NCBI GenBank assembly: GCA_938023735.1
Contig: CALJDK010000016.1
Location: 7,145-71,144 of the forward strand
DNA length: 64,000 nucleotides
Reading direction: 5' to 3'
Source of the DNA: an uncultured Acidimicrobiales bacterium
GTDB lineage: Bacteria > Actinomycetota > Acidimicrobiia > Acidimicrobiales > SHLQ01
The notes beneath the pieces are model-generated. The model ran no database searches. It saw only the letters and a program-made list of their open reading frames with translations, and was not told the DNA's origin. Made by a program: the position numbers and the translations under genes. How positions within the stretch are numbered: the first letter of the stretch is position 1; every line of letters starts with the position of its first letter. This document shows, piece by piece, positions 3,856-60,835 of this stretch.

Positions 3856-6156
3856 CTAGTTGTTTCGGCTCTTTGCAGCCGCTACTGCCGTGACTGCCAT
3901 GGCAAGCAAGGCCAGGCCAGCGACGATAAGCGGAAGCGGAAGCGAGCCGCCTTCGCTGATGGGTTGTTCGCCCAGGCTGAGCTCGGGAGCATCGGCCTGA
4001 ACGTCATCGCCACGCATTGCCGGGCCCTCGTCGACGAACGGAAGCTCGGTTGGTTCTTCGCCGATCCGGTCGGTGTCGATGGGTTCGGCATCTTCGTTGG
4101 CGGTGTCGGTCTGAGGATCTGGACGTTCGCCCAGGCTCTCGGCCGACTCGTCGGGACCGATATCGTCGAACAAGCCTTCGAGGCTAAAGCCGCTTTCGGG
4201 GGCCCGTCGCTCGATATGAGGCGTCCAACCTTCGGGAACGACCAGTTCGGGGACGGTGGTTGTCGTCGTAGTCGTGGTCGAGGTGGCGCCTGGGGTGGTG
4301 CTTGTTGTGGTCGACGGTGCCGCAGTTGTGGTTGGTGCTGCGGTGGTTACCGGCGCCTTGGTGGTTGGCACCACGATGATGAACGGTGCGGTAGTAGGCG
4401 CACTTGTAGTGGCTGGCGCCTGGGTGGTTGCTGGCGCCTTTGTTGTTGGTGCGTTAGTGGTGGCTGGCGCCTTGGTGGTAGCTGGTGCCTTGCTAGTAGC
4501 CGGCGCCTGAGTGGTTACCGGGGCTTTGGTGGTGGCAGGTGCTTTGGTTGTTGCGGGCGCCTGAGTCGTTACCGGGGCCTTGGTGGTAGCAGGTGCCTTG
4601 GTGGTGGCCGGGGCTTTGGTTGTTGCGGGCGCCTGAGTGGTAGCAGGAGCCTTGGTGGTGGCAGGTGCCTGGGTGGTTGCCGGCGCTTTGGTGGTGGCAG
4701 GTGCCTGGGTGGTGGCAGGTGCCTGGGTGGTTGCCGGTGCCTGGGTCACAGCCGGCGCCTTTGTGGTTGTGGGGGCCTGCGTGGTGGCTGGGGCCGCACC
4801 GGCGAACTCGAAGGCGCCGATGTCAGACTTTGCGCCGGCTGGGCGGTTCACGCCACCGAACGAGCTGTTCACCAGGTCCAGACCCTGATCGATGGCGGGC
4901 GACCAGCCCTGAAGCGAGAAGTCGGCCTTGCTGGGGTCGGTCGTAGGGTTGGTAAGACCGGGGTTGCTATCGACCCGGCGGTCATCGGGGTCGACATTTC
5001 CGCCCACGACGATGTTGTTGTAGCTCTCGAGGTTTGATCCGTTCTTCAGCACGATGCCGTCGGTGCCGTTGTGTGGCCACGCAATGTTGTTTGCTACCCG
5101 AACGTCGCGGGCATCAAAGGCATCGATTTCGGCGCGGGTACCCGTGAGCTTCGGGGTCCACGAGTTGTGCATGGTGGTGTTGTTGTACACATCGACATGG
5201 CTCGACATGAACACATGGATTCCCTTACCGCCGTTGTTGAACACCACGTTGTTGGCGATGAGGGTACGCAGGGTGTATCCGGTCAGGTTGTTCTGGTCGA
5301 GGATGATGCCGTTTCCGTCGGTGATGTCGTTGGGGAAACCGATTCCGGCACCGTTCACTTTGTTCTCGTTGGCGTACACGACGTTGCCGACGATGTAGTC
5401 GGAGTAGCCGTTGGCATCGTCGCCGAAGCCGTGATGCTGCGGACGCCAGATCGAAATGCCCGAGCCCTGGTTGTCGTTCCAGTACGAGTTCTCGTAGATC
5501 TCGTTGTACATGATGCGAGCATGGCTGATCTTCTGCGATCCGTATCCGCCTACCGGGAAACCGTGGATCTTGTTGTTGGAAACTAGAATGTGGTGGCCAG
5601 TGTTGGCGACAACGCCGTATCCGTAGCTATGGCCGGCGTGAAAGCCCCGTCCTTCAAGCTCGAAGCCCGAGACCTCGACATAGGACGAGTGATAGAGCTC
5701 GATGGCGCTGGTGTTGGTGGCAACGATCTTGGGGGAGTGCCCGGGCATGGCCTTGATACGGATCCACGCATCGGCGGTGCCGTTCTTGTTCGCGACCACG
5801 ATGTGGGCCTGACCGTTGTTGTTGTCGCCGGTGTAGGTGCCGTTCATCACAAACACCGTGTCGCCGGCCTGAAGACGGCTGACCGCCGTGGTGATGTAGC
5901 GAAGTGGGGCGTCCTGCGACGTTCCGCTGTTTCCGTCGTTGCCGAACTCGGCGCTGACGTAATAGGTGGTGCCCTGGGTTGCACCAAGCACGTCGGTGCG
6001 ATCATCGTCGCCCGATGGCTGCTGGGAGTCGACGGTGGGGGGCTCGTTGGTCGAGCACGCAGCGCCGAAGAGAGCAAGCGTAAGGAACAGAACGGCGAGT
6101 CGAATGAAGCCGTTGGTATGACGAGTTGAGGTGATCTGGGGGGCAGTCATGCCCAA
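3856..6156 (-). CDS. Right-handed parallel beta-helix lipoprotein with a long Pro/Thr/Ala linker, an acidic region and a C-terminal TM anchor; putative glycan-active enzyme
   Basis: Lipobox LFGAAC near the N-terminus. Beta-helix repeat signatures are present (NNKIHG, NEIYEN, ITDGNGIILDQN, ANNVVFNNGGKGIHV, VYNNTT). About 180 aa of APATT(Q/K) repeats follow. The C-terminus is LPLPLIVAGLALLAMAVTAVAAAKSRNN. Confidence 0.75.
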   Translation of the reverse strand: MGMTAPQITSTRHTNGFIRLAVLFLTLALFGAACSTNEPPTVDSQQPSGDDDRTDVLGATQGTTYYVSAEFGNDGNSGTSQDAPLRYITTAVSRLQAGDTVFVMNGTYTGDNNNGQAHIVVANKNGTADAWIRIKAMPGHSPKIVATNTSAIELYHSSYVEVSGFELEGRGFHAGHSYGYGVVANTGHHILVSNNKIHGFPVGGYGSQKISHARIMYNEIYENSYWNDNQGSGISIWRPQHHGFGDDANGYSDYIVGNVVYANENKVNGAGIGFPNDITDGNGIILDQNNLTGYTLRTLIANNVVFNNGGKGIHVFMSSHVDVYNNTTMHNSWTPKLTGTRAEIDAFDARDVRVANNIAWPHNGTDGIVLKNGSNLESYNNIVVGGNVDPDDRRVDSNPGLTNPTTDPSKADFSLQGWSPAIDQGLDLVNSSFGGVNRPAGAKSDIGAFEFAGAAPATTQAPTTTKAPAVTQAPATTQAPATTQAPATTKAPATTQAPATTKAPATTQAPATTKAPATTKAPATTKAPVTTQAPATTKAPATTKAPVTTQAPATSKAPATTKAPATTNAPTTKAPATTQAPATTSAPTTAPFIIVVPTTKAPVTTAAPTTTAAPSTTTSTTPGATSTTTTTTTTVPELVVPEGWTPHIERRAPESGFSLEGLFDDIGPDESAESLGERPDPQTDTANEDAEPIDTDRIGEEPTELPFVDEGPAMRGDDVQADAPELSLGEQPISEGGSLPLPLIVAGLALLAMAVTAVAAAKSRNN
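4250..4800 (-). repeat. In-frame 18-nt tandem repeat tract encoding (APATTQ/APATTK)n plus a poly-Thr run
   Basis: Repeated ggtggttgc/ggtggtggc-aggtgcctg units are directly visible. They translate to APATTQAPATTKAPATT... within the 766-aa ORF. Confidence 0.85.
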
Positions 6157-9053: not shown

Positions 9054-10016
9054 CTACAAAGGGTTTGCGTGAGTGTCGTTGGCTGCGACGTGATAGCCAA
9101 GGACATCTTTACCCGCCACCGCTTTCAACTGACCAACGCCAATCAACGACGTCTTCAGGCCCCGCACGATTCCGCTCTTGCCCTGCTTCGCCCCAAACAA
9201 CACCGCCCGGGCTGCGCCGAGCGGGAGCTTTGCGAGGCCCTCGACCAAGTGATGAAAGCGCACCTTGTTTCGCTCGGCATCGGTGGTTGCGAACGACAGA
9301 TCGACAATGGCCAGCGTGTTGCCATCGCGCTGGAGACGCTTGGCAACGGTGCGCAACTCCATACGGTCGGCCGGAACCCACTCGGTGGTGAGCGCTCCAG
9401 TCGATTGCACCAATTTGTAGTTGCCGCGCACCAAGCGATGACCGAGATGGTGATCCTCGCCCCCGGTCTTACTGAACCGTTCGTCAAACAGCGGGCCCAG
9501 GTTGTCGACTAGCGCCGTTCGGAGAAGCAGGTTGTTGGTGGAGACATAGTCGGTATCTGCCTTGTCGGCCGAGTCTGGCGAGAAGTCATACACCCCAGAG
9601 TCGTCGAGCCAACCAGGTGGAGGCGACTCAAACGCAAAGGTGGTGTTTCCAACAACGGCATCGGCGTCGGTAGCAATCTGGGTTTGTGCGAGTTCCGCAA
9701 GCCACTGGCTGCTGGCTTCTTCGTCGTCGTCGATAAACGCCAGCCACGACGATGACGCGTCGATGGCGGCGTCGACCGCTCGATTGCGGGCCACCGAGAG
9801 TCCGGTGTTCTGTTCGGCGATGTAGGACAGGCCAGGAATACGATCGGACCATGCCTCGACGGTGGCCTTCGCCGACCCCGCAGGATCGTTATCGACCACC
9901 ACGGTATGGGACCATGTCCACGGCTCGGGCTGCGCCACGGCTTCGAGGCTGGCAAGAAGCCGAGCCAGTTTGTCGGGGCGTTGGTAGGTGATGACGCCGA
10001 CGGTAAGCGACGTCAT
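9054..10016 (-). CDS. Glycosyltransferase family 2
   Basis: N-terminus VGVITYQRPDKLARLL, followed by VVVDNDPAGSA and FIDDDE (DxD) motifs. There is a 4-nt overlap with the upstream Wzy-like gene. Confidence 0.8.
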   Translation of the reverse strand: MTSLTVGVITYQRPDKLARLLASLEAVAQPEPWTWSHTVVVDNDPAGSAKATVEAWSDRIPGLSYIAEQNTGLSVARNRAVDAAIDASSSWLAFIDDDEEASSQWLAELAQTQIATDADAVVGNTTFAFESPPPGWLDDSGVYDFSPDSADKADTDYVSTNNLLLRTALVDNLGPLFDERFSKTGGEDHHLGHRLVRGNYKLVQSTGALTTEWVPADRMELRTVAKRLQRDGNTLAIVDLSFATTDAERNKVRFHHLVEGLAKLPLGAARAVLFGAKQGKSGIVRGLKTSLIGVGQLKAVAGKDVLGYHVAANDTHANPL

Positions 10017-11353
10017 CGCGAGCGGCGGAGCGTATGCGGTGCCGGCGGAAGCTCTTCGTCGTTGATCTCAAGCACTCGTCGCGACAGCCGCGCTCCGTGG
10101 ACCGAGGCAACCACCAGTAGCGGCCAAAAGATGGTTCGACCCGCAACACCCGACTCGGTTACCGAAATCATCATCAGCATCGAGAAGAACCCGAGTGGCC
10201 AAAGCCCCACAGCGCCGTCGACGTAGCGGACATGGCGCGATGCTCGAACGATGCCTCGAGCTACCAAGACGATCATCGGCACGAAGCCCAGCAGTCCCAG
10301 CGAAAGGAACATGTCGAGAAAGACGTTGTGAGCGGTAGGTGGCAGCCAGTTGTGTGTGATCCAGATCTCGTGCGAGGGACTGAACCAGCCGCCCCAGAAC
10401 GCCTCCCAGCCGAAGCCGGTAAACGGACGGCTTGAACCCTCGGCGATGAGGTCTTCCCAGAGGATTGTCCGGCCGGTCAGGGTGACATCGCGATCGAGTG
10501 CCCGCGTGAGTTGATCAAGGCTGGCTGTTGCGACTGAGATTGCGAACGCGGCGCCACCAAACAGTGAAACCGCAACCGCGCCATAGAGGGTTTTGCGGGC
10601 CCGGAACGCCTGATAGATAAACAAAAAGACCGGAGTGATGAGGAAGCTCGCCAGTGATGTCTTCGATCCGGTGCCAAGAACAAGGGGCAGCTGAAGCCCG
10701 AGAAACAGTAGGTAGACAAGTCGCATTGAGCGGTGCTCGCGGTAGGCAACCGAGAACACCAGTGCCGACAGCACCGAGAGGCGGCCGAGCACGTTTCGCT
10801 GCGACGTGATGCCGGTCCAGTTGGCGTCGACACTCAGATCGATGCCGTATTGCGGAAGGCCAAACACCCAGAGGTAGTTGAGGATTGTTCCGATGATGAG
10901 CACGTACGCCAGCATCCGGTTGATCCGAGCAAGCTCGTACCGAACCACCAGGTAATAGCCGACCAACGTTGCGATCGCGAATGCTCCAAAGCGGCGAAAC
11001 GTTTGTATTGAATCGGGGCTCCACAGGATTGAGACCAACGCCACCGAAACAATGAAGGCAATAAGCCATTCGCGGCGCACCGCTTCGAGAACAAGGTTCC
11101 AGTTGCCGATGAGTCGAGTGCCCAGCAAGGTTCCAAGCAGCAAAAAAACGGCGGACGGAAGCGCGCTGTTTCCACCGGTATCGATGGCCTGAATGGGGTC
11201 GAACGCCTGAAACCACTCGTTCGGGAGACCGAGGGTAAGCGTGCCAATCGTGAAGACGGTGAGGAATTGCTCGAGCACACCCGGCCGACTAACAGTTGCG
11301 GGCCGGCTTCGTACCCCAGGGCTCATGCCGAACCGAGGTACCAGTGCGGTCAT
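10013..11353 (-). CDS. O-antigen ligase/polymerase-like (Wzy-type) membrane protein (copy A)
   Basis: 446-aa polytopic protein with a large loop. It is coupled (ATGA overlap at 11350-11353) to the Wzz/BY-kinase gene and is a paralog of 30412..31722. Confidence 0.6.
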   Translation of the reverse strand: MTALVPRFGMSPGVRSRPATVSRPGVLEQFLTVFTIGTLTLGLPNEWFQAFDPIQAIDTGGNSALPSAVFLLLGTLLGTRLIGNWNLVLEAVRREWLIAFIVSVALVSILWSPDSIQTFRRFGAFAIATLVGYYLVVRYELARINRMLAYVLIIGTILNYLWVFGLPQYGIDLSVDANWTGITSQRNVLGRLSVLSALVFSVAYREHRSMRLVYLLFLGLQLPLVLGTGSKTSLASFLITPVFLFIYQAFRARKTLYGAVAVSLFGGAAFAISVATASLDQLTRALDRDVTLTGRTILWEDLIAEGSSRPFTGFGWEAFWGGWFSPSHEIWITHNWLPPTAHNVFLDMFLSLGLLGFVPMIVLVARGIVRASRHVRYVDGAVGLWPLGFFSMLMMISVTESGVAGRTIFWPLLVVASVHGARLSRRVLEINDEELPPAPHTLRRSR

Positions 11354-13038
11354 GAGACCAGGTTCTTCGAGGCTCGCTCGTAGGCGTAGCGATCGCGGCG
11401 GCTAAAGAAACCAGCGTCGCGGCTGCGGTCGCGGTTGAGGATGGCGCCAAGTACCCGAGCGCCAGCCCGGTCGAGGTCGCTTCGCATCTGAAGGAGGGTG
11501 GACGTGTCGGTGCGCCGGCTATCGACCAACACCACAACGCCGCCAACGCTGGCACTAGCAGCAATGGCGTCGGCAGCCGAGAGAACTGGTGGCGTGTCGA
11601 CGACCACGTATTCGTAGGTGGCCTCGAGGCGACGAATAAGGTCGCGGAACCGAGCAGAACCGAGCAGTTCACCCGGGTTTGCTGGCGTCGGACCCGAAGG
11701 GATCACTGCGAGGTTCTCGACACCGACACTGACAATTGGGGGTGGCGTAACTTCGCGAGCCTGAAGTGCAGTCGAAAGGCCCTCGGTGTTCCCAATGCCA
11801 AAGAGGTTCTCGATGGATGGGCGACGCATATCGGCCGATACCAGCACGGTGGGGGATCCGCCCTGGGCGAGAGCGATTGCCAGGTTGGTGGCCGATACCG
11901 ATTTACCCTCAGCAGGCTGGGCACTTGTAACCAGAAGACTGTGGATGTTGTCGGTGGTGGCGAGGTACTGGAGCGAGGTGCGAAGCCGGCGGAATGACTC
12001 CCGTGCCCGTTGCACCGCGGTCGACTTGCTTGAACTGAGCATGACCAACGCCGAAGCACCGGTTCGGTTGCTGAAACCAAACGGCGGCACGGTTCCGAGA
12101 ACCGATGCGGCCATCGCCAACTCGACATCAGACTCTTCGCGAGCGGTGTTGTCGAGGCGGTCGAGCACGAACGCCGCCGCAATTCCCATCAGAAGACCCG
12201 CGATGAGGCCGGCAGCGCGGATCGCGTTACTGCCGAGCCCGTTGGGCTTTTCGGGAGTTGCAGCGGTCCGAAGGATTTCGGCCGGCGGAGCGTTTGTGAT
12301 TGCCGACTGCGACCGGAGGAGTCGAGAAAGACTTGCTCGAGCCGGATTTATCTGACCGAAGATTCCTTGGCGCTGCGTCGTCAAAGACTGAAGCTGGGCG
12401 TTAAGTGATGGCCGACTGGCAACTTCGCTGGCAGACGCCGTACTTGCGTTCGCACGAGCAAGTTGCTGCGTGACACTTGCCTGCTCTGCGCTAATTTCGT
12501 CGAGTTGAGCGGTGAGCGAGTCGACGTCGGTTTGGACGATCTCGATCTGATTTGCGTAGAACGAATCGGCGTCTCCGACGCGGTCCTCGGCGTAGGTTTC
12601 CATGAACGAGTTGATGATTCTCGCGGCGAGTTCGGGGTTTTCGTCGGTGAAGGTGCCTTCGAGAACAAAGCCGGTTGGAGCAAACTCAACCTTGAATACT
12701 GACGACTCAAGCAGTTCACGAGGCGAGCGTGAGAGCGAAAGTTCACGGGCCACCGTTTGCGCGATCGGAACCGATAACAGTTTGGCTCGCTCGGTTTCGA
12801 GATTCGGCAGTGCCGTGACACCGCTATCGATGCCGCTGTTGGAATCGACCGGGCTTGGGCCAAGGCGAATGGTGGCCGCGGCGTCATAACTCGACGTCCG
12901 CGATGCTGCGAACAGCGTGGCAAGAATAAGACCCAAAAGCGCACAGATGGCAATCAGGAGTTTCCGGGCTTGAATCGCCTTGAGATAGTCCTCAAGCCCT
13001 GGGGTCTCGTTGGCTTGACTATTCGCTTCGTACATCAC
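11350..13038 (-). CDS. Polysaccharide co-polymerase (Wzz domain) fused to a BY-type tyrosine autokinase (copy A)
   Basis: N-terminal TM, a coiled periplasmic-type region and a second TM. Kinase motifs: Walker A SAQPAEGKS, Walker A' VLVSADMRRP, Walker B VVVDTPPV. The C-terminal tail is RRDRYAYER. Confidence 0.85.
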   Translation of the reverse strand: MMYEANSQANETPGLEDYLKAIQARKLLIAICALLGLILATLFAASRTSSYDAAATIRLGPSPVDSNSGIDSGVTALPNLETERAKLLSVPIAQTVARELSLSRSPRELLESSVFKVEFAPTGFVLEGTFTDENPELAARIINSFMETYAEDRVGDADSFYANQIEIVQTDVDSLTAQLDEISAEQASVTQQLARANASTASASEVASRPSLNAQLQSLTTQRQGIFGQINPARASLSRLLRSQSAITNAPPAEILRTAATPEKPNGLGSNAIRAAGLIAGLLMGIAAAFVLDRLDNTAREESDVELAMAASVLGTVPPFGFSNRTGASALVMLSSSKSTAVQRARESFRRLRTSLQYLATTDNIHSLLVTSAQPAEGKSVSATNLAIALAQGGSPTVLVSADMRRPSIENLFGIGNTEGLSTALQAREVTPPPIVSVGVENLAVIPSGPTPANPGELLGSARFRDLIRRLEATYEYVVVDTPPVLSAADAIAASASVGGVVVLVDSRRTDTSTLLQMRSDLDRAGARVLGAILNRDRSRDAGFFSRRDRYAYERASKNLVS

Positions 13039-28604: not shown

Positions 28605-28771
28605 AAGGAAAGAATCCGGACGAAGTCGCCGCCCGTTTACTTGGAAAGAATACGTCCAGACGGCCCTGTTGCCGGGCGCCTAGCGCAGTGTACGATTGGA
28701 GACAATGGAATCTCCAGCGTCGGACCATCTCGGCCCCGTACTGGTCGGTGGACAGAGGTGCAACCGTGGTG

Positions 28772-30415
28772 ATGTATAGCGGATCGTTCGAGACGGTCGA
28801 GACCCCGGGTCTTCAAGATTATCTCAAGGCTGTCCAGGCGAGAAAGCTTCTCGTCATCCTGTTCTTGCTCGCTGGGCTTGGGCTCGCGTACCTCTTTACA
28901 ACCAATCGAACAGCCACGTATTCGGCCAGCACCCGCGTCCTCGTCAACCCAAGTCCGGCACGATCAGGCACCACCGGCAACTCGAGGCCCAACCTCGAGA
29001 CCGAACGCGAGATTCTGACATCGGAACCTATTGCCCGGGTTGTTGCCCAAGAAGTACCCGATGCGCCTTCGCCACGAGACATTCTCGCCGGACTTGATGT
29101 GAGCTTCCGGACGGGCAGCGAGGTCTTGTCCCTCACGTATACCTACAACGACCCAACTGTCACGGCCGAAGTTGTTAACGGCTTCGCTCGGACCTACACC
29201 CAAGATCGAATCGATGCGACGGCGGAGGTCTACACGGCGGAACGAGCGGCACTTGCGTCGTCAGCCGACGGAATCGGCGAACAGATCTCCGCTGTCGATG
29301 CTGCATTGGTCGATGTCAACGATTCGCTGGGCGAACTCACACCAGAGGACACCGTTGGTGCCGACGTGCTTCGCGCCGAACGCACGACGCTCTCCAGTCA
29401 GCGCAACCAACTCACGGCCGACTTGATTACGGTTCAGAAATCTCTCCGCGCGCTCACACAAACTGAAGACGGCGCTAGCTTGGCGGCCGAGGTTCTGCAA
29501 CTTGCCGACCCGCCGTCCGCCCCAGAGGGATTTCCCGACCGGCTCCTCTGGATCGTCGGCGGCATGCTCGGTGTCACCTTAGGAGTAATTGCGGCGTTTG
29601 TCGCAGACCGACTCGATACAACGGCGCGTGAGGAATCTGACGTCGAGCTAGCGCTCGGTAGTTCGGTGCTCGGCTCGGTGCCGCCATTCGGAAGATTTGG
29701 CGGAGCGAGCGACGGGCTCGTGATGCTAAGCGACAACACCAGCACCCGAACGCAGAGGGCACAAGAGTCGTTCCGACGTCTCCGAACCTCAATTCAGTTC
29801 GTAGGAAATTCTGACGGAATCCGCAGCTTATTGTTGACGAGTTCGCAGCCAGCCGAAGGAAAGTCCACAGTCTCGGCGAACCTTGCCGTTGCGCTTGCTC
29901 AGGCAGGCCAGACCGTCGTGCTTGTCTCAGCAGACATGCGTCGACCGACCCTCGAGACTATTTTCGGCATTCGCAACGTGACGGGTTTGAGCGATCATCT
30001 TCAGTCTGACTCCCAGAGTTACCCGCCCGTAATCAGCATCGGAGTCGAGAACCTCGCGATCCTGCCCAGCGGCCCGCCGCCACCAAACCCTGGAGAGCTT
30101 TTAGGGCTGCCGCGCTTCAAACAACTCATCGTTCAGCTTGAGGCCACGTATGACTTCGTCATCGTTGATACCCCGCCAGCGTTGTCCGCGGCCGATTCTG
30201 CAGCGGCTGCAATCAGCGTTGGTGGTGTACTTGTGGTTGTCGACTCGAAACGAACCGATACCGAGGCCCTCTTGCGGGTCCGTTCCGACCTTGAACGCTC
30301 AGGGGCTCGGGTAATCGGAGCACTGCTCAACAAGGATCGTTCTCGTTCCACGAAGTTCTGGTCGCGTCGCGATCGCTACGCGTACGAACGAGCAGCTGCC
30401 ACCGCCCGAAAGTGA
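28772..30415 (+). CDS. Polysaccharide co-polymerase (Wzz) fused to a BY-type tyrosine autokinase (copy B)
   Basis: It starts at MYSGSFETVETPGLQDYLKAVQARKLL, parallel to copy A (ETPGLEDYLKAIQARKLL). Motifs: Walker A SSQPAEGKS, VLVSADMRRP, VIVDTPPA, tail RRDRYAYER. Confidence 0.85.
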   Translation: MYSGSFETVETPGLQDYLKAVQARKLLVILFLLAGLGLAYLFTTNRTATYSASTRVLVNPSPARSGTTGNSRPNLETEREILTSEPIARVVAQEVPDAPSPRDILAGLDVSFRTGSEVLSLTYTYNDPTVTAEVVNGFARTYTQDRIDATAEVYTAERAALASSADGIGEQISAVDAALVDVNDSLGELTPEDTVGADVLRAERTTLSSQRNQLTADLITVQKSLRALTQTEDGASLAAEVLQLADPPSAPEGFPDRLLWIVGGMLGVTLGVIAAFVADRLDTTAREESDVELALGSSVLGSVPPFGRFGGASDGLVMLSDNTSTRTQRAQESFRRLRTSIQFVGNSDGIRSLLLTSSQPAEGKSTVSANLAVALAQAGQTVVLVSADMRRPTLETIFGIRNVTGLSDHLQSDSQSYPPVISIGVENLAILPSGPPPPNPGELLGLPRFKQLIVQLEATYDFVIVDTPPALSAADSAAAAISVGGVLVVVDSKRTDTEALLRVRSDLERSGARVIGALLNKDRSRSTKFWSRRDRYAYERAAATARK

Positions 30416-31722
30416 GCCTGAACGTCGCCGTCACCGCGACAGGGCCCAAACAAAGGGCCCAAGCACCGTCGACAATCGAACGTGCTGTATGCGTATCGAT
30501 GCTGTTCCTGTTGTCATTCAATACGCCCAACCGCTGGTTCCTCTCGCGGCGGGAAAGCCTTGACATAGCGATAGAGGCAGCCGCAGATCCGTTCGCTGTG
30601 ATACTGGTCTTGGGGCTTACCGGATTTTTCGCACACAAGCTCGCTGGAAACTGGCAGCCGATGTACTGGGTCGCCATGCAGGATCGACTCTTTCTTGCCT
30701 TCTTTGGGCTTGTCGGGCTGTCGACGCTGTGGTCGGTCGAACCCGTCGCAACGATTCGCGAGACTATTGTGACGCTCTTCGTAGTGTTCTTTGGCCTGTA
30801 CTTGGTTGTGCGTTTTTCTCTGCGGGATGTCCTATTTCTTTCCGGTGTTGCCTTTGGCATCGGTGTCATTGTCGATCTGTTCTTCGTGTTTGCTCTTCCT
30901 GACTATGGCGACACGTTCGCTGGATGGAGCGGAACACAGATCAACAAGAACAGCCTGGGGAGACTTCATGTCCTCACCGCGATCGTCTTTCTTGTTGGCG
31001 CACGTACCTTTCGCCGGTTCCGTGTTATCAACTACTTCCTGGCAGGGCTCTCGGTAGCTCTTGTAATCGGATCGACGTCGTCAACGTCGCTTGTTTCGCT
31101 GTTGCTAGCGCTAACGACCACGGTTGTTGCGCAGATCTTCCGAGCGAGAAAATCGTTGTTCCCGGCTGTTGTGCTGAGCACGATGTTGTCAGCGGTAACC
31201 GCCGTTGGTTTCGCTACCGCGAATCTGGGTGTGCTGACCGAACTGTTCGGCAAAGACGTGACATTCACCGGCCGCACACCGCTTTGGGACTTCACGATTG
31301 CCGAGTCGATGGAAAGGCCTTGGACTGGTTTTGGTTGGAACGCGTTCTGGAACGGCTTCGGGTCGCCTGCTCACGAGGTCTGGGTCGAATTCGCTTGGAC
31401 GCCGCCTCACGCGCATAACGCGTTCATCGATTACGCGCTCCAAGTAGGTTGGCCAGGAGTCATCTTGTTCATGATAATGATTCTGCGAGCGAGTTCGAGA
31501 AGCATTGCCTATGTCCGCGATACACCAGGCCCAACAGGGTTACTCCCTCTCGCCATCATCGTGTTCTCGCTGTTGTTCTCTCTGACCGAATCTGGGGTCG
31601 TCGGCCGAAATGGCTTCTTCCTTCTGGTCACGGTGTCTGTGTATTCCGTGGCGGTCGCGCGGGCTAGGCGGCAAACGGAGATGCGAACCGGCCCGTCATT
31701 GTCGATAAGCGAGAGCATCTAA
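30412..31722 (+). CDS. O-antigen ligase/polymerase-like (Wzy-type) membrane protein (copy B)
   Basis: 436-aa polytopic protein. Its GTG start overlaps the kinase stop (GTGA), the same junction as in copy A. Shared blocks with copy A include TGFGWNAFWNGFGSPAHEVW versus TGFGWEAFWGGWFSPSHEIW. Confidence 0.6.
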   Translation: MSLNVAVTATGPKQRAQAPSTIERAVCVSMLFLLSFNTPNRWFLSRRESLDIAIEAAADPFAVILVLGLTGFFAHKLAGNWQPMYWVAMQDRLFLAFFGLVGLSTLWSVEPVATIRETIVTLFVVFFGLYLVVRFSLRDVLFLSGVAFGIGVIVDLFFVFALPDYGDTFAGWSGTQINKNSLGRLHVLTAIVFLVGARTFRRFRVINYFLAGLSVALVIGSTSSTSLVSLLLALTTTVVAQIFRARKSLFPAVVLSTMLSAVTAVGFATANLGVLTELFGKDVTFTGRTPLWDFTIAESMERPWTGFGWNAFWNGFGSPAHEVWVEFAWTPPHAHNAFIDYALQVGWPGVILFMIMILRASSRSIAYVRDTPGPTGLLPLAIIVFSLLFSLTESGVVGRNGFFLLVTVSVYSVAVARARRQTEMRTGPSLSISESI

Positions 31723-31740: not shown

Positions 31741-34479
31741 TTACGCGCTGGCCCGCGGCGACTCCTGGCGCACTGGTTGGTTGTCGGCGCTGGCTGGGTC
31801 GAGAGCCTCGGTGTCGAGGCCGTACTTGGCGATTGCTTCGCTGACCACGCTGGTATCGATAACGCCATCGCCCGCAAGTGCCGACAGGGTAGCTACCACG
31901 ATGTTTGCGGTGTCGACTTCGAAGAACGAACGCAGAGCTGTGCGGGTGTCTGAACGGCCATAGCCATCGGTTCCCAGCGGCACGAATGTGCCTGGCGCCC
32001 ACCGAGAGATCTGATCGGGCACCACCTTCATGAAGTCGGTTACCGCAATGATTGGCCCCGGCATCGACGCCAGCTTCTGCTCGCACGCCGAAACATCGGG
32101 CTCATCGCCTGGGTGCAGACGGTTCCAGCGCTCGGCGGCCAAAGCTTCGGTGCGCAGTGTCTTATACGACGTTGCGCTCCACAGCTCGGCCGATACCCCG
32201 TAGTGCTCGGCCAATTCGGCGGTTGCTTCGCGTGCAGCACCTTGGGCGCTGCCAGAGAACACGATGGTGGCGGGGTGGGCATCGGCTACTTCAGGAGCCT
32301 CGGCAAACCGGTAGAGGCCGCTGTTGATGTCGTCGTCGGTGACCCCGGCCGGACGCTCGGGCATCTCGTAATTCTCGTTGTAGATGGCGACGTAATAGAA
32401 CACATCCTCGGGGTTCTCGCCATACATCCGATGAAGACCGCGGCGCATAATGGCGCCAAGTTCATACGCAAACGCCGGGTCGTAGGCCTCGCAAGCCGGC
32501 ACGGTCGATGCCAACACAAGACTATGACCGTCTTGATGCTGTAAGCCCTCGCCCATAAGCGTCGTACGGCCTGCAGTTGCCCCCATCAGGAAGCCGCGGG
32601 CCCGAGAATCTGACGCCGACCAGATGAGGTCGCCCACCCGCTGGAAACCGAACATCGAATAGAAGGTGTAGAACGGCACCATCGGCACGCCGAGGTTCGC
32701 GTAGCTCGTTCCGGCGGCGATAAAGCTGGCCATCGAGCCCGCTTCGGTGATTCCCTCTTCGAGAATCTGACCATCGGTGTCCTCGGCGTAGGAGAGCAGC
32801 AGCTCGTGGTCGACAGGTTCGTATTTCTGGCCGAACGGGGCGTAAATCTCGAACTCGCGGAACATGGAGTCCATCCCAAACGTTCGAGCCTCGTCGGGCA
32901 CGATGGGCACAGCCCGAGAACCGAAATCATCATCGCGCATGAGTTCGCGCAGCAGGCTGGTGAACACCATCGTCGTGGACACTTCACGCCCGCCCGAACC
33001 GGCGTCGAACGCCTCGAACGGCGCATCGGCAGGCATCGAGAGCGGACGGCGAGCGGTCGTGACCCGGCGCGGCACATACCCATCGAGGGCCCGGCGCCGA
33101 TCCATCATGTAGTTGTACTCGTCGGAACCCTCGGCTGGCCGGTAGTACGGCGGGATGCCATCGGCGATCGCCGACTCGGGAATCTCCTCCTCGAGATGCA
33201 GGCGGGCCCGCAGATCGAGCATCTGTTCGGTGGTCATCTTCTTGATCTGGTGGGTTGAGTTTCGGGCCTCGAAGCCCTCGCCCAACGTCCAGCCCTTGAT
33301 GGTCTTGGCCAGAACCACGGTCGGCGCGCCGGTTGATTCACTTGCCGCCTTGTAGGCCGCATACACCTTGGAATAGTCGTGCCCGCCGCGCGGCAGGTTT
33401 CGAATCTCGTCGTCGGTGAGGTGGTCGACCATGGCCCGCAGGCGTGGATCGGGGCCAAAGAAGTGCTCGCGAACGTATGCGCCCGACTCTACGGCGTAGC
33501 GTTGGTACTCGCCATCGACGGTGCTGTGCATCTTGTTCAGCAACACACCGTCGACATCGCGTGCCAACAGCTCGTCCCACTTAGAGCCCCAGATCACCTT
33601 GATGACATTCCAGCCGGCACCCCGGAATACGCCCTCGAGCTCCTGAATGATCTTGCCGTTCCCTCGAACTGGGCCATCAAGACGCTGAAGGTTGCAGTTG
33701 ACCACCCAGACCAGGTTGTCGAGCCCCGACCGTCCAGCAAGCGAGATAGCGCCGAGGGTTTCGGGCTCGTCCGACTCGCCGTCGCCGATAAAGCACCACA
33801 CCTTCGATTTCGAGGTGTCGTCGATGCGGCGATCGGTCATGTATTTGTTGAACCGAGCGTGGTAGATCGAGTTGATCGGGCCCAAGCCCATCGACACCGT
33901 AGGGAACTCCCAGAAGTCGGGCATGAGGCGCGGGTGCGGGTAACTCGACAGTCCACCGCCACCGATCTCGGTACGGAACCGATCGAGGTTGTCCTCGCTC
34001 AGACGACCCTCGAGGAACGCTCGGGCGTACACGCCTGGGGCGGCATGACCTTGGAAATACACGTGATCGCCGGGGGTACCGTTTTCTTTACCGCGGAAGA
34101 AATGGTTGAAGCCCACCTCGTACAGCGACGCCGACGACGCAAAGGTCGACAGGTGACCGCCAAGGCCATCTGCCTTCTTGTTGGCCCGCACCACCATGGC
34201 GGCAGCGTTCCAGCGGATAAAGGCTCGGATGCGGCGCTCGATATGTTCGTCGCCGGGGAACCACGGTTGATCCTCGGTTGGGATGGTGTTGAGGTAGGGC
34301 GTGCGAACACCAGGGGAGATGCCGACCTGTTGTTCCTGGGCCCGTTCGACCATTCGGGCCATGATGAACCGGGCGCGAACCTTGCCTTTTTCGCCAATCA
34401 GCGCGTCGAGAGAATCGAGCCATTCCTGGGTTTCGTCGGGGTCGATATCGGGCAACTGATGCATGAACTGATCGAGCAT
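31741..34479 (-). CDS. aceE: Pyruvate dehydrogenase E1 component, homodimeric type
   Basis: 912 aa. N-terminus DIDPDETQEWLDSLDALI. ThDP motif region GDGESDEPE...NCNLQRLDGPVRGN. The length is typical of AceE. Confidence 0.9.
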   Translation of the reverse strand: MLDQFMHQLPDIDPDETQEWLDSLDALIGEKGKVRARFIMARMVERAQEQQVGISPGVRTPYLNTIPTEDQPWFPGDEHIERRIRAFIRWNAAAMVVRANKKADGLGGHLSTFASSASLYEVGFNHFFRGKENGTPGDHVYFQGHAAPGVYARAFLEGRLSEDNLDRFRTEIGGGGLSSYPHPRLMPDFWEFPTVSMGLGPINSIYHARFNKYMTDRRIDDTSKSKVWCFIGDGESDEPETLGAISLAGRSGLDNLVWVVNCNLQRLDGPVRGNGKIIQELEGVFRGAGWNVIKVIWGSKWDELLARDVDGVLLNKMHSTVDGEYQRYAVESGAYVREHFFGPDPRLRAMVDHLTDDEIRNLPRGGHDYSKVYAAYKAASESTGAPTVVLAKTIKGWTLGEGFEARNSTHQIKKMTTEQMLDLRARLHLEEEIPESAIADGIPPYYRPAEGSDEYNYMMDRRRALDGYVPRRVTTARRPLSMPADAPFEAFDAGSGGREVSTTMVFTSLLRELMRDDDFGSRAVPIVPDEARTFGMDSMFREFEIYAPFGQKYEPVDHELLLSYAEDTDGQILEEGITEAGSMASFIAAGTSYANLGVPMVPFYTFYSMFGFQRVGDLIWSASDSRARGFLMGATAGRTTLMGEGLQHQDGHSLVLASTVPACEAYDPAFAYELGAIMRRGLHRMYGENPEDVFYYVAIYNENYEMPERPAGVTDDDINSGLYRFAEAPEVADAHPATIVFSGSAQGAAREATAELAEHYGVSAELWSATSYKTLRTEALAAERWNRLHPGDEPDVSACEQKLASMPGPIIAVTDFMKVVPDQISRWAPGTFVPLGTDGYGRSDTRTALRSFFEVDTANIVVATLSALAGDGVIDTSVVSEAIAKYGLDTEALDPASADNQPVRQESPRASA

Positions 34480-34541
34480 GACGACAGTCTTTCAGAAGTT
34501 CCCGGGCTAACGGCGTACTCCCAGGCGTTACCTGCTGGTAA

Positions 34542-35651
34542 GTGACCAATTACCGCAGCGACCGCCTGCGATGTGGCAGAATCCGCCGGGTGACAACCCT
34601 CGTATATACCGACGGCGCATGCTCGGGAAACCCTGGCCCCGGCGGATGGGCCTGGATCGTCCCCGACGGCCCCTTCGGTGCCGGCTTCGCCGAGGACACC
34701 ACCAACCAGCGGATGGAGCTTCAAGCGGTGCTCGAGGCACTAACCGAATTGTCGGGACCGGTCGAAGTTGTGAGCGACTCAACCTATGTCGTCAACTGCT
34801 TCCGCGACGGCTGGTGGAAAGGCTGGCTCAAGCGGGGTTGGAAGAACAGTCAGAAAAAGCCGGTAGCCAACCAGGACCTCTGGGAACCGCTCATCGACCT
34901 TTACCAAGACCGCTCTGCCGAACTCACCTTCACCTGGGTGAAGGGCCACAGCGGGAATCAGTGGAACGACTATGCCGACCGGCTGGCAGTTGAAGCTGGG
35001 TATTTGCAGCAGCCCCGGTCTGGGGATTCCACGCCAACCGAAATCGGAGAACCCGACAAGAACCGTGGTCCATCGAAGGCTTCGGCGGCCGCTGGCTCGC
35101 CCGCTGACGGTACCGTCGTTGCCAAAAAGAACGGCCAAGGCATTCCTGACGGACACCTGGTGGCGGTTCTGGGTCATCAGCCACCAGAAATTGGCGGCTA
35201 CGACGCCAATCCGTTGGCCGACCGTATCCGTACGCGCCTCGTGCAGATCCTGCGGGCTAAGGCCGAGATGGACCCCGACCTCACCGTGCTGAGTGGACTC
35301 CGGCTGGGCGCTGAGCAACTAGGCGCCGAGGCGGCACTTGCCGCCGGCGTGCCGCTGGTTAGCGTGCTGCCATACCCAAATCCGGACAAGAAATGGCCCG
35401 AACTTTCCCGTCGGCGATTCGCCGAGCTAACCGCAAAGTCACGCGAAACCGTCGTGCTCGCCAAGTCCGAACCCGACAGCTCCGCCAAAGCGGGCGCAGC
35501 GATGCGCAAGCGCGATGCTTGGCTCGCCAAGGCTGCCGACGAAGCACTGATTGTTTGGGATGGCTCAGATGCCCGAGTCGGGAAGACCGTTCAGGCTTTT
35601 GAGACCGCGCTGGGCGATGACGTTTGGGTGGTCGACCCGAGCGAGGTTTAG
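34542..35651 (+). CDS. rnhA: Ribonuclease HI fused to a C-terminal YpsA/DUF1273-like SLOG domain
   Basis: N-terminal domain: VYTDGACSGNPGPGGWAW, NQRMELQAVLEAL, VSDSTYV, WVKGHSGNQWNDYADRLA. After a low-complexity linker comes LVAVLGHQPPEIGGYD...VLSGLRLGAEQLGAEAALAAGVPLVSVLPYPNPDKKW...ALIVWDG, collinear with B. subtilis YpsA. The start may be the in-frame GTG at 34590. Confidence 0.8.
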   Translation: MTNYRSDRLRCGRIRRVTTLVYTDGACSGNPGPGGWAWIVPDGPFGAGFAEDTTNQRMELQAVLEALTELSGPVEVVSDSTYVVNCFRDGWWKGWLKRGWKNSQKKPVANQDLWEPLIDLYQDRSAELTFTWVKGHSGNQWNDYADRLAVEAGYLQQPRSGDSTPTEIGEPDKNRGPSKASAAAGSPADGTVVAKKNGQGIPDGHLVAVLGHQPPEIGGYDANPLADRIRTRLVQILRAKAEMDPDLTVLSGLRLGAEQLGAEAALAAGVPLVSVLPYPNPDKKWPELSRRRFAELTAKSRETVVLAKSEPDSSAKAGAAMRKRDAWLAKAADEALIVWDGSDARVGKTVQAFETALGDDVWVVDPSEV

Positions 35652-58544: not shown

Positions 58545-60641
58545 CTAGCCAACAAATGCTGAAGCAAACACCAACGACACGATGGTCATAACCTTCAACA
58601 AGATGTTCATGGCTGGGCCCGAGGTGTCCTTGAAGGGGTCACCAACGGTGTCACCAACAACGGCAGCCTTATGAGCATCGGAGCCCTTGCCGCCGTGGGC
58701 GCCAGCTTCGATGTACTTCTTGGCGTTGTCCCAGGCACCACCGGCGTTGGCCATGAAGATGGCCAGTGCGAAGCCAGTAACAAGCGCGCCGGCCAGCAGG
58801 CCGCCGAGTGCATCGACATCGACAAAGCCCACAACCAGAGGCACAACGACAGCGAGAGCGCCAGGAATAATCATTTCCTTCAGCGACGCTGCAGTTGAGA
58901 TCTCGACGCAACGAGCAGAGTCAGGGATAACGCCCTCTTTGCCCTCGCGAAGTCCGGGGATCTCACGGAATTGGCGACGAACTTCCTCGATCATCTCGGT
59001 CGCAGCACGGCCGACGGCGTCGATGGTGAGCGCTGCAAACAGGAACGGCAGGCCGGCACCGAGGAACAAGCCGATGAACACATCGACCTCGCCCACGTTG
59101 AGGTTGAGTTCGCCGCCAGCTTCCTGGATGGCAAACTCAAAGCTCTTAAACAGTGCCAGAGCGGTGAGTGCCGCCGAGCCAACGGCGAAGCCCTTTGCTA
59201 CAGCAGCCGTGGTGTTTCCGAGGCTGTCGAGTGCGTCGGTGACTTCGCGAACCGACGGATCGAGTTCGGCCATTTCGGCGATACCACCGGCGTTGTCGGC
59301 GATAGGTCCGTAGGCGTCGACCGACACAACCACACCGGTGGTTGCAAGCATGCCGATTGCGGCAACCGCAATGCCGTAGATACCGCCGTTGAGGTTGCCG
59401 ATGTCGTTGGCGAATGCGTACTCGCCGCCCCAGTAGGCCACGCCCACGCCGACGAGGATCAGGATCACCGATGCGGCAACCGAGACCATGCCGGCGCTGA
59501 TGCCCGCCAGAACTGTGGTGGCCGGTCCGGTTTCGGTCTGCGCCGCAATCTTCTTCACGGGACTGAAGTGATCGGAGGTGTAGAACTCGGCGGTCTTTCC
59601 AAGTGCCCAACCAACGATGAGGCCACCGATGACCGAGAAGGCCAAGCCGATGGGGTTGTCGAACGTGTCGCTATCGCCAAAGAGCCAGAACGCAATGCCG
59701 ATGGTGGCCACGATGGTGATTGCCATGGCCACGTTGGTGCCCATATGCAGCGCCCGGCTGAGGGCCTTCGAGTCGGTGGACTCGCCGCCCTTCACCAGGA
59801 ACGAACCAATGATCGAGGCGATCATGCCAACAAAAGCAATGGCCATCGGGAACATGAGCAGCGACAGGGCGTCGTCGCCGATGTCGTCGGCGGAGAGGCC
59901 AACGGCGAACGCAACCAGCGAGATCGGCGCAATGATGGATCCGGCGTAGCTCTCGAAGAGGTCGGCACCCATACCGGCGACGTCGCCCACGTTGTCGCCA
60001 ACGTTGTCAGCGATGGTGGCCGGGTTGCGAGGATCGTCCTCGGGAATGCCAGCTTCGACCTTACCGACAAGGTCGGCGCCAACATCGGCTGCCTTGGTGT
60101 AGATACCGCCACCGACACGGGAGAACAGCGCAATCGACGAAGCGCCAAGGCCGTAGGCCGTGACAACTTCGAACGCTTCGCTGTGCTCGCCGATGACGAC
60201 AAAGATGATGTAGACGGCCATAAGACCAAGCAATGCGAGTCCGGCAACCGAAAAGCCCATAACGGCGCCACCGCGGAATGCGATGGGCAGCGCCTTACCG
60301 GGGCCATCTTTGGCGGCTTCGGTGGTGCGAGCGTTGGCCATAGTGGCCACGGTCATGCCGATATAACCGGCCAGTGCCGAGAGAACTGCGCCGATCAGGT
60401 ACGTGATGGCAGCCGCCGGCGTGATGACGAAGAACAGCAGGATCATCATCGCAACGACGAACACCGAAACCCAGGTGTACTCCGCTTTCAAGAAGGCCTT
60501 TGCGCCCTTTTGGATCTCGGTCATCAGGAAGACCATGCGCTCGTCGCCAGGAGACGCAGCCTTCACATTGGTAAAGAAAAACCCGGCTAGGCCAAGCGCT
60601 GCGAGCGCTGACACTAGGGCGAGATACGGAATTGAACTCAA
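58545..60641 (-). CDS. hppA: Membrane-bound ion-translocating pyrophosphatase, K+-dependent-type signature
   Basis: Motifs GGIYTKAADVGADLVGKVE, DNVGDNVGD, GNTTAAVAKGFA and GGAWDNAKK. The probable TTG start at 60641 follows GGAGA. The track ORF reaches 60692. Confidence 0.9.
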   Translation of the reverse strand: MSSIPYLALVSALAALGLAGFFFTNVKAASPGDERMVFLMTEIQKGAKAFLKAEYTWVSVFVVAMMILLFFVITPAAAITYLIGAVLSALAGYIGMTVATMANARTTEAAKDGPGKALPIAFRGGAVMGFSVAGLALLGLMAVYIIFVVIGEHSEAFEVVTAYGLGASSIALFSRVGGGIYTKAADVGADLVGKVEAGIPEDDPRNPATIADNVGDNVGDVAGMGADLFESYAGSIIAPISLVAFAVGLSADDIGDDALSLLMFPMAIAFVGMIASIIGSFLVKGGESTDSKALSRALHMGTNVAMAITIVATIGIAFWLFGDSDTFDNPIGLAFSVIGGLIVGWALGKTAEFYTSDHFSPVKKIAAQTETGPATTVLAGISAGMVSVAASVILILVGVGVAYWGGEYAFANDIGNLNGGIYGIAVAAIGMLATTGVVVSVDAYGPIADNAGGIAEMAELDPSVREVTDALDSLGNTTAAVAKGFAVGSAALTALALFKSFEFAIQEAGGELNLNVGEVDVFIGLFLGAGLPFLFAALTIDAVGRAATEMIEEVRRQFREIPGLREGKEGVIPDSARCVEISTAASLKEMIIPGALAVVVPLVVGFVDVDALGGLLAGALVTGFALAIFMANAGGAWDNAKKYIEAGAHGGKGSDAHKAAVVGDTVGDPFKDTSGPAMNILLKVMTIVSLVFASAFVG

Positions 60642-60835
60642 GTAAATTGTCTCCTTGGAAGGTCCGACAGGTATACGGCCGGGGTGCCGCACCCGCCAGT
60701 CGGTAACGGATCAAAGGTAATATTGGCGACTTCTCGGCACAAACACAGGGGAACCGTCGTTGAACCGAAGCGGTTCGAGTGATCTGTCCCTTGTCGCTAG
60801 TGTGAGTTGTCCCCGTACCCGAGGAAGTACTGATC

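Follow-up and report, generated by a model that had tools for sequence, protein, structure and literature searches.

Ribonuclease HI (RNase HI) controls R-loops and primer removal, and in Actinomycetota it is a target for drug potentiation (10.1101/2022.11.09.515703). The gene described here encodes an RNase HI that carries a second domain. It lies on the + strand at 34542..35651 of a 64-kb window (the whole stretch of 64,000 nucleotides that was analysed, from contig CALJDK010000016.1 of an uncultured Acidimicrobiales bacterium), and its product joins the nuclease, through a linker, to a SLOG domain of the YpsA family. Described bacterial enzymes of this type include E. coli RnhA, the T. thermophilus enzyme (1RIL) and the Chlorobium tepidum enzyme (3H08). 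The window domain is 36-45% identical to these and shares their fold, their catalytic residues (Asp, Glu, Asp, Asp and His) and the basic protrusion. Unlike them, the window protein adds a linker of ~44 residues and a C-terminal SLOG domain of 165 residues.

The RNase HI fusion already described in actinobacteria is RnhC (Rv2228c, MSMEG_4305), the RNase HI-CobC acid phosphatase of mycobacteria and Streptomyces. An earlier note on this DNA, made from the sequence alone, had named the CobC fusion as the known one, and the RnhC literature agrees (PMC7466739; 10.1101/2022.11.09.515703). RnhC is also a protein of Actinomycetota. In it, as in the window protein, RNase HI stands at the N-terminus, a hypervariable linker follows, and the C-terminal accessory domain has to do with nucleotide chemistry; in both the domains evolve at unequal rates. 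The C-terminal domains are of unrelated folds; that of RnhC is a histidine phosphatase, whereas that of the window protein is a SLOG Rossmannoid, and no His_Phos (CobC-type) Pfam match is present in the window protein. RnhC homologs have been reported in Actinomycetales only (PMC7466739). The RNase HI-SLOG and RNase HI-CobC proteins are independent fusion events; two actinomycetotal lineages have each added a nucleotide-chemistry domain to RNase HI, CobC in Actinomycetales and SLOG in Acidimicrobiia.

SLOG clades are nucleotide sensors or nucleotide processors (PMC9503650). B. subtilis YpsA (2NX2; PF06908/DUF1273) has the same fold as the window SLOG domain and is collinear with it over the whole domain. 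Features common to the two are the GxD/E motif, a Gly-x-x-Pro in the first loop with an aromatic residue after it, a Trp at the position of YpsA W87, and an acidic charge. However, the window SLOG is ~18% identical to YpsA, is fused to RNase HI, occurs in Acidimicrobiia and not in Firmicutes, and has no gpsB neighbour in the loci examined. It is therefore not an ortholog of the YpsA of cell division and oxidative stress, and the YpsA phenotype is not transferable to it. YpsA linked to gpsB belongs to Firmicutes, and the defence-associated YpsA branches also differ from the present context (PMC6459960).

In ThsA, binding of a cyclic ADP-ribose (cADPR) variant to the SLOG domain changes the oligomeric state and switches on the fused Sir2 NADase effector (PMC9503650). 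ThsA resembles the window protein in having a SLOG domain and a catalytic effector in one polypeptide, and it provides a model for a ligand-controlled RNase H. Thoeris ThsA is part of a two-gene defence operon with a TIR signal generator and has a Sir2 effector, whereas the window gene is monocistronic and housekeeping and has an RNase HI effector. DprA and ShosA belong to the same superfamily, give the second-best profile and fold matches, and have a helix Arg in common with the window SLOG. The window SLOG is nonetheless a weaker match to them (template-modelling (TM) score ~0.6; 11 bits for DprA), is acidic, and is without the extra DprA domains. Eukaryotic RNase H1 consists of a small, basic N-terminal domain that binds double-stranded RNA or hybrids, a flexible disordered linker, and the catalytic domain. 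The design is alike, with an accessory binding domain attached to an RNase H1-type catalytic domain through a disordered linker; in the window protein, by contrast, the accessory domain is C-terminal, of SLOG fold and acidic.

The fusion gene and its domains

Both domains clearly belong to known families, and the fusion is real, widespread and uncharacterised. It is very nearly certain that the gene is a housekeeping, rnhA-type RNase HI gene of Acidimicrobiia joined by a linker to a YpsA-family SLOG domain, and that the fusion is old, vertically inherited and common in the class. The parts of the gene are:

34542..35651, + strand: RNase HI-linker-SLOG fusion, whole open reading frame (ORF) as called; 369 amino acids (aa), GTG start, stop codon 35649-35651
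34590..34592, + strand: probable true start codon, GTG; yields a 353-aa protein beginning MTTLVYTDGAC
34593..35021, + strand: RNase HI domain, residues 18-160 (PF00075, PDB 3h08, Foldseek, conserved catalytic residues)
34611-34613 (D24), 34716-34718 (E59), 34776-34778 (D79), 34947-34949 (H136) and 34977-34979 (D146), + strand: catalytic codons (from alignment)
35022..35153, + strand: linker, residues 161-204; Gly/Ala/Pro-rich, with a disordered core predicted
35154..35639, + strand: YpsA-family SLOG domain, residues 205-366 (PF06908, profile A3, AlphaFold2 model, Foldseek)
35307..35315, + strand: G256-A257-E258, the GxD/E signature of the YpsA family, equivalent to B. subtilis YpsA G53-V54-E55
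35394..35399, + strand: W285-P286, an invariant pair that aligns with YpsA W87

No stop or frameshift was found inside the ORF when the window was analysed. A protein identical to the window protein (P0001) is present on 6 contigs, and the 3 shown are from independent assemblies (ERZ6864144, ERZ6864376 and ERR9287621). This recurrence shows that neither misassembly nor a frameshift produced the RNase H-SLOG junction. The two halves had been read in the earlier note as one continuous frame, and this reading stands. A frameshifted or chimeric origin of the fusion was ruled out by the uninterrupted ORF, the identical copies and the fused homologs.

Residues 1-16 of the called ORF are unconserved in an alignment (A1) of 45 fused homologs that have 55-84% identity to the window protein. 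The homologs begin immediately ahead of 'VYTDGAC'; one of them (P0003) starts with MTTLVYTDGAC, exactly as the window protein does when read from the GTG at 34590. This GTG is taken as the probable true start because the 16 upstream residues are unconserved and P0003 begins in the same way. The GTG at 34542, which adds these 16 residues, is probably a mis-called start both in the window and in the database copy P0001.

The N-terminal half is, judged by its sequence, a complete and canonical RNase HI. It matches Pfam RNase_H (PF00075) over residues 19-152 (E=2e-35; 122.4 bits against a cutoff of 25.8), and it matches the PDB sequence 3h08 (E=8e-33). The NCBIfam RNase HI model (PRK00203) gives 136 bits, short of the 160 bits of its equivalog cutoff. 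That cutoff governs naming only, and orthology to rnhA has its support instead in the aceE-adjacent position that the gene has in common with stand-alone rnhA. D24, D79, H136 and D146 are invariant in A1, and E59 is conserved in at least 90% of the homologs. Alignment with RNase HI sequences from the PDB shows that D24, E59, D79, H136 and D146 are the counterparts of E. coli D10, E48, D70, H124 and D134. The basic protrusion GWWKGWLKRGWKNSQKKPVANQDLW is present in the window protein and conserved in the homologs. Foldseek superposes the N-terminal domain on the RNase HI structures 3H08, 1RIL and that of E. coli with TM 0.75-0.88 and a root-mean-square deviation (rmsd) of 1.8-2.6 Å. RNase HI had first been called from the blocks DGAC, MELQAV, SDSTYV and NDYADRLA; all four are present and hold D24, E59, D79 and D146, with H136 nearby, and the call was correct.

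The C-terminal half matches Pfam YpsA (PF06908) over residues 207-343 (E=2.8e-6; 27.9 bits against a gathering score of 27.7), and NCBIfam gives a faint YpsA-like match. As a single query against the PDB, this half returned chance WDR5 matches only (E ~0.1); a profile bridged through stand-alone relatives (A3) was required to reach YpsA. Profile A3 matches B. subtilis YpsA 2NX2 with E=2e-16 over residues 4-155, nearly its whole length, and DprA/ShosA with ~2e-6. The fold search with the full-length model was filled with RNase HI matches, and the SLOG domain was therefore modelled separately with AlphaFold2, with a predicted local distance difference test score (pLDDT) of 95.8 and a predicted TM score (pTM) of 0.90. 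The top Foldseek match of this model is 2NX2 (E=4e-10; TM 0.83/0.79; rmsd 2.6 Å; 174 columns). ShosA and DprA are at TM about 0.55-0.61, LOG is at about 0.5 (E about 5e-3) and a Moco-carrier protein at about 0.45.

Two other family identities were rejected. For DprA (PF02481) the score is 11.3 bits against a cutoff of 29.6 (E=0.19), and TM is ~0.6 as against 0.83 to YpsA. LOG proteins have the signature PGGxGTxxE; this motif is absent from the window protein, no Pfam LOG match was obtained, and the fold match is weak (TM ~0.5). The earlier note had aligned blocks of the C-terminal half with B. subtilis YpsA, and its block pairing agrees with the profile alignment to 2NX2. It had also allowed that this half might turn out to be DprA or LOG proper; this did not occur, and Pfam, the A3 profile and the fold all favour YpsA.

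G256 and E258 of the GxD/E signature are invariant in the 45 fused homologs. In YpsA this motif (G53, E55) is the predicted substrate-binding motif and is needed for function and for focus formation; W87 is also needed for function (PMC6459960). The invariant SLOG residues in A1 are G211, P214, G218, G219, G252, G256, E258, W285, P286, R324, W327, W339 and W362. Most of them are found at strand C-termini and in the loops that follow, which is the usual location of the Rossmannoid ligand crevice. The first-loop pattern G211-x-x-P214…G218-G219-Y220 is conserved in the fused family. The legend to Fig. 1B of PMC6459960 mentions a conserved aromatic residue in the first loop of the YpsA family. Y220 (at least 90% conserved) aligns with YpsA F17, and H212, which varies between His, Leu, Val and Met, aligns with Y9; either position may be the one meant in that legend.

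The nearest stand-alone relatives carry the motifs 'TGHRPxKLGGY', 'ISGMALGxDQ' and 'WDGxxGGT'. The loop after the last core strand is 'GSP' in B. subtilis YpsA. Comparison of the predicted structure with YpsA, a check put forward with the original reading, gave a YpsA fold (TM 0.83 to 2NX2) in which the GxD/E crevice motif is kept; the GGT loop of the nearest relatives is replaced. The fused SLOG is acidic in 45/45 homologs (mean isoelectric point (pI) 5.4; net charge -8 to -1), whereas stand-alone relatives have a mean pI of 8.4; B. subtilis YpsA is likewise acidic. The acidic charge speaks for a small ligand or a protein, and not DNA, as what the SLOG domain would bind.

The linker, first described as a low-complexity stretch of ~50 aa, proved to be about 44 residues long and rich in Gly, Ala and Pro. 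In the full-length AlphaFold2 model its core (residues 175-197) has pLDDT <50. Both domains have pLDDT >90 in this model, and pTM is just 0.51; the model suggests that the RNase HI and SLOG domains have no fixed mutual orientation. Linker length in the fused homologs ranges from 24 to 61 residues. Among the 45 fused homologs RNase H has a mean pairwise identity of 71%, SLOG one of 55% and the linker one of 32%. From these alignments both globular domains are under purifying selection; for the SLOG domain this follows from its 55% identity as against 32% in the linker.

Distribution, synteny and probable loss

When clusters at 90% identity were listed for the full protein, the 120 best-scoring ones proved without exception to be full-length fusions (~336-409 aa). 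The named clusters among them come from metagenome-assembled genomes (MAGs) of Acidimicrobiales, Acidimicrobiia or Actinomycetota. Some carry the JGI label 'ribonuclease HI/uncharacterized phage-like protein YoqJ', and one is labelled 'SLOG family protein' by NCBI. The earlier note had left it undecided whether the RNase HI-YpsA architecture was catalogued. By automated annotation it already is, implicitly; no paper describing or testing the fusion was found, and as the 2015 SLOG classification was not covered, an earlier mention there is possible. Some database copies of the fusion are labelled 'ribonuclease H' alone or 'SLOG family protein' alone, and start codons are mis-called.

The SLOG half has 1628 relatives among 1.84 billion cluster representatives. 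The closest of these (E < ~1e-20) are essentially all RNase H fusions or fragments of such fusions. The farther relatives are stand-alone YpsA-like proteins of 160-200 aa, together with other architectures. Some distant relatives, 21-36% identical, are phage-borne; the SLOG half of the window protein has no PHROGs match, whereas stand-alone relatives match phrog_289. A separate database search, for which the query was just the SLOG half, gave no entry longer than 296 aa and missed the full-length proteins, and so it is not usable as a census. These other architectures were recorded in P0194 (320 aa), P0161 (780 aa), P0214 (576 aa) and P0203/P0217/P0223 (344-406 aa). They are DUF4326+YpsA, which is also found in Myxococcus phage Mx1, two or three SLOG repeats in one protein, and an N-terminal SLOG with uncharacterised C-terminal extensions.

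Three apparent stand-alone SLOG proteins of the fused type on long contigs (P0276, P0322 and P0334) were rejected as artefacts, being mis-called or frameshifted fusions. P0276 lies in an intact 343-aa fused ORF with a mis-called start (locus L091, 3590-4618). For P0334 (L090, 3417-4561) and P0322 (L089, 3508-4522), RNase H and SLOG are in different frames; these are long-read frameshift errors or pseudogenes.

GTDB species genomes were also scanned, as a sample and not a census. Among the matches listed, every full-length fusion is from an Acidimicrobiia-type MAG, Microthrixaceae and Ca. Poriferisodalis being among them. In Acidimicrobiaceae, Ilumatobacteraceae and others the RNase HI stands alone, is 140-160 aa long and has 60-68% identity to the RNase H half of the fusion. 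The phylogenetic distribution called for in the original reading has been mapped for this sample: the fusion is common in Acidimicrobiia, and sister lineages have stand-alone RNase HI.

The upstream surroundings of the fusion gene are:

31741..34479, - strand: aceE (pyruvate dehydrogenase E1), the divergent neighbour
34480..34589, no strand: intergenic region between the divergent fusion gene and aceE; presumed promoter location, in an arrangement conserved in relatives

No sigma-70-type consensus was found in 34480..34589, and the promoter/terminator scan gave nothing meaningful. The fusion gene, which is monocistronic, has aceE (or valS) as its divergent neighbour and genes for DUF427, SRPBCC and DUF1731 proteins as convergent ones. 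Fused and stand-alone RNase HI genes occupy the same aceE-divergent slot, often convergent with DUF427, SRPBCC and DUF1731-epimerase genes; because of this common slot, the fused gene is regarded as the positional ortholog of housekeeping rnhA. A stand-alone RNase HI was seen in the aceE slot at L017, L018, L022, L023, L025-L028, L030, L033, L034, L037, L038, L042, L043 and L048, and stand-alone matches lie near 3001-3450 in most of the loci listed between L017 and L048. No TIR, Sir2, phosphoribosyltransferase (PRTase) or other defence or conflict gene is near the fusion gene in any locus examined. The idea of a split gene, with a SLOG gene adjoining stand-alone rnhA, was rejected; the stand-alone RNase HI genes have no separate SLOG gene closer than 3 kb.

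Fused and stand-alone states are interspersed on a neighbour-joining tree of aceE, a single-gene tree of MAG data with no support values. The fused SLOG domains are each other's closest relatives, and the fusion is kept across deep divergence within Acidimicrobiia (aceE ~60-80% identical). Taken together, the sequences suggest that one ancient fusion followed by several losses of the SLOG domain is the most parsimonious reading.

Two loci with an Acidimicrobiia-like rnhA, 64-68% identical to the RNase H half of the window protein, come from MAGs labelled as Verrucomicrobiales (L037) and Polyangiaceae (L021). The aceE of L037 is 74.6% identical to that of the window and the locus has the SRPBCC and epimerase synteny; it is probably a mis-binned contig.

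Proposed role of the SLOG domain

The best explanation as a whole, identity and mechanism taken together, is given a probability of roughly 55%. Its mechanistic part is held more tentatively, at somewhat under even odds: most likely the RNase HI is active, and an accessory module flexibly tethered to it binds a ligand or a partner. The N-terminal RNase HI would be catalytically competent and would act on RNA/DNA hybrids, for example R-loops and primers, by degrading their RNA strand. The SLOG domain would be a non-essential module; since the GxD/E crevice of the family is kept, the crevice is most likely occupied by a small ligand derived from a nucleotide, or by a partner. The domain would then affect the place, the timing or the oligomeric state in which the RNase HI acts. 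Ligand-driven self-association or recruitment would be more plausible than rigid allosteric gating of the active site. Precedents are the control of a fused effector by SLOG in ThsA (PMC9503650) and the dependence of YpsA foci on the GxD/E motif (PMC6459960), and the tethered accessory domains of other RNases H1 are comparable. A functional link between the halves is supported, as far as sequence comparison goes, by the closest SLOG relatives all being fused or fragments of fusions.

If the SLOG domain does regulate or target the nuclease, this would show how bacteria tune R-loop processing, and it would extend SLOG sensing beyond anti-phage systems. RNase H activity would also be a tractable biochemical read-out for the poorly understood YpsA family, and may help to find the long-sought YpsA ligand.

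For the suggestion in the earlier note that hybrid cleavage may be gated by, or targeted through, a small nucleotide ligand, the evidence is mixed: the invariant GxD/E motif and the position of the invariant residues in the crevice speak for it, and the variable linker with no predicted fixed geometry between the domains speaks against tight allosteric gating. Several points weigh against the explanation given here. No ligand is known for any member of the YpsA family and none was identified in this analysis. The PF06908 score is borderline, and about half of the homologs are without a precomputed YpsA match. The GGT loop, present in at least 90% of the nearest stand-alone relatives, is replaced by A-R-V in the window protein (the fused consensus is WDGxDxRxG), and the His-Arg of 'GHRP' is variable in the fused family; the pocket is therefore remodelled and could be partly degenerate. 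As modelled, the long, variable and partly disordered linker would be a poor basis for direct allosteric control. The SLOG domain appears, from the gene comparisons, to have been lost several times with RNase HI retained, and hence to be dispensable. Finally, in mycobacterial RnhC, the best-studied analogue, the two domains work independently (PMC7466739; 10.1101/2022.11.09.515703).

The last of these points leads to an alternative that is possible but rather less probable: the protein is simply bifunctional, the SLOG domain has a job unrelated to hybrid cleavage (in nucleotide or NAD metabolism, or a YpsA-like role in oxidative stress), and the fusion is kept by co-expression or drift. The domains of RnhC/MSMEG_4305 are functionally dissociated in vivo, evolve at unequal rates and are joined by a hypervariable linker, and fixation of that fusion has been attributed to drift (PMC7466739); RnhC phenotypes map to the phosphatase domain and not to RNase HI (10.1101/2022.11.09.515703). 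A like pattern is seen here, with 71% as against 55% identity, a hypervariable linker and no predicted fixed interface, and the apparent repeated loss of SLOG from a retained RNase HI fits as well. However, an independently working module is expected to occur alone at least sometimes. The fused-type SLOG was never found as a separate gene, its close relatives being fusions, fragments or frameshifts, nor does one lie within 3 kb of stand-alone RNase HI; and the fusion has persisted through the deep divergence of Acidimicrobiia seen in aceE. If the domains do prove independent, RNase HI would offer a second case of a domain gained by neutral accretion.

A stronger form of the tethered-module explanation is unlikely. 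In this form the SLOG domain would genuinely sense a metabolite or signal derived from nucleotides (for example an alarmone or a derivative of NAD/ADP-ribose); binding would alter the oligomeric state or localisation of the tethered RNase HI, and so couple the removal of R-loops and primers to metabolic or stress state. If true, SLOG-type control would, outside immune systems, have been shown for a housekeeping nucleic-acid enzyme for the first time.

More doubtful still is a targeting role, in which the SLOG domain would recruit RNase HI to its substrates by binding single-stranded DNA (ssDNA), such as the strand displaced in an R-loop, and/or RecA. In function this would be comparable to the hybrid-binding domain tethered to eukaryotic RNase H1. 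After YpsA, the best profile and fold matches are DprA and ShosA, and both bind ssDNA and RecA through the SLOG fold (PMC12961424, PMC11961720). R324, the helix Arg (as in the 'RN' motif), also occurs in DprA/ShosA in the alignments, and the modelled beads-on-a-string architecture would fit a targeting domain. On the other hand, the domain is acidic in every one of the 45 homologs, unlike the stand-alone relatives, the Pfam DprA score is 11.3 bits against a cutoff of 29.6, and TM is ~0.6 to DprA as against 0.83 to YpsA. DprA itself has flanking SAM and winged-helix (DML1-like) domains, which are absent here.

That the SLOG domain is a LOG-like enzyme, acting as an N-glycosidase or phosphoribohydrolase on nucleotides or on ribonucleotide ends left by RNase HI, is very improbable; the LOG clade does cleave N-glycosidic bonds of nucleotides (PMC9503650) and LOG structures are among the distant fold matches, but these matches are weak (TM about 0.5; E about 5e-3), there is no Pfam LOG match, PGGxGTxxE is absent, and the domain has lost even the GGT loop that its closest relatives carry.

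Other genes in the window

Further regions of the window were recorded. A 766-aa right-handed beta-helix protein with Cementoin-like short repeats is encoded at 3859-6156 (-) and coincides with a strong AT-skew/GC-skew anomaly at 4-6 kb of the composition profile. Paralogous pairs, each comprising a Wzz/BY-kinase-like P-loop protein and a Wzy_C O-antigen-ligase-like membrane protein, are encoded at 10016-13038 (-) and 28688-31722 (+); they suggest that the window contains two exopolysaccharide modules. An ordinary membrane H+-translocating pyrophosphatase (PF03030, 852 bits) is encoded at 58548-60692 (-).

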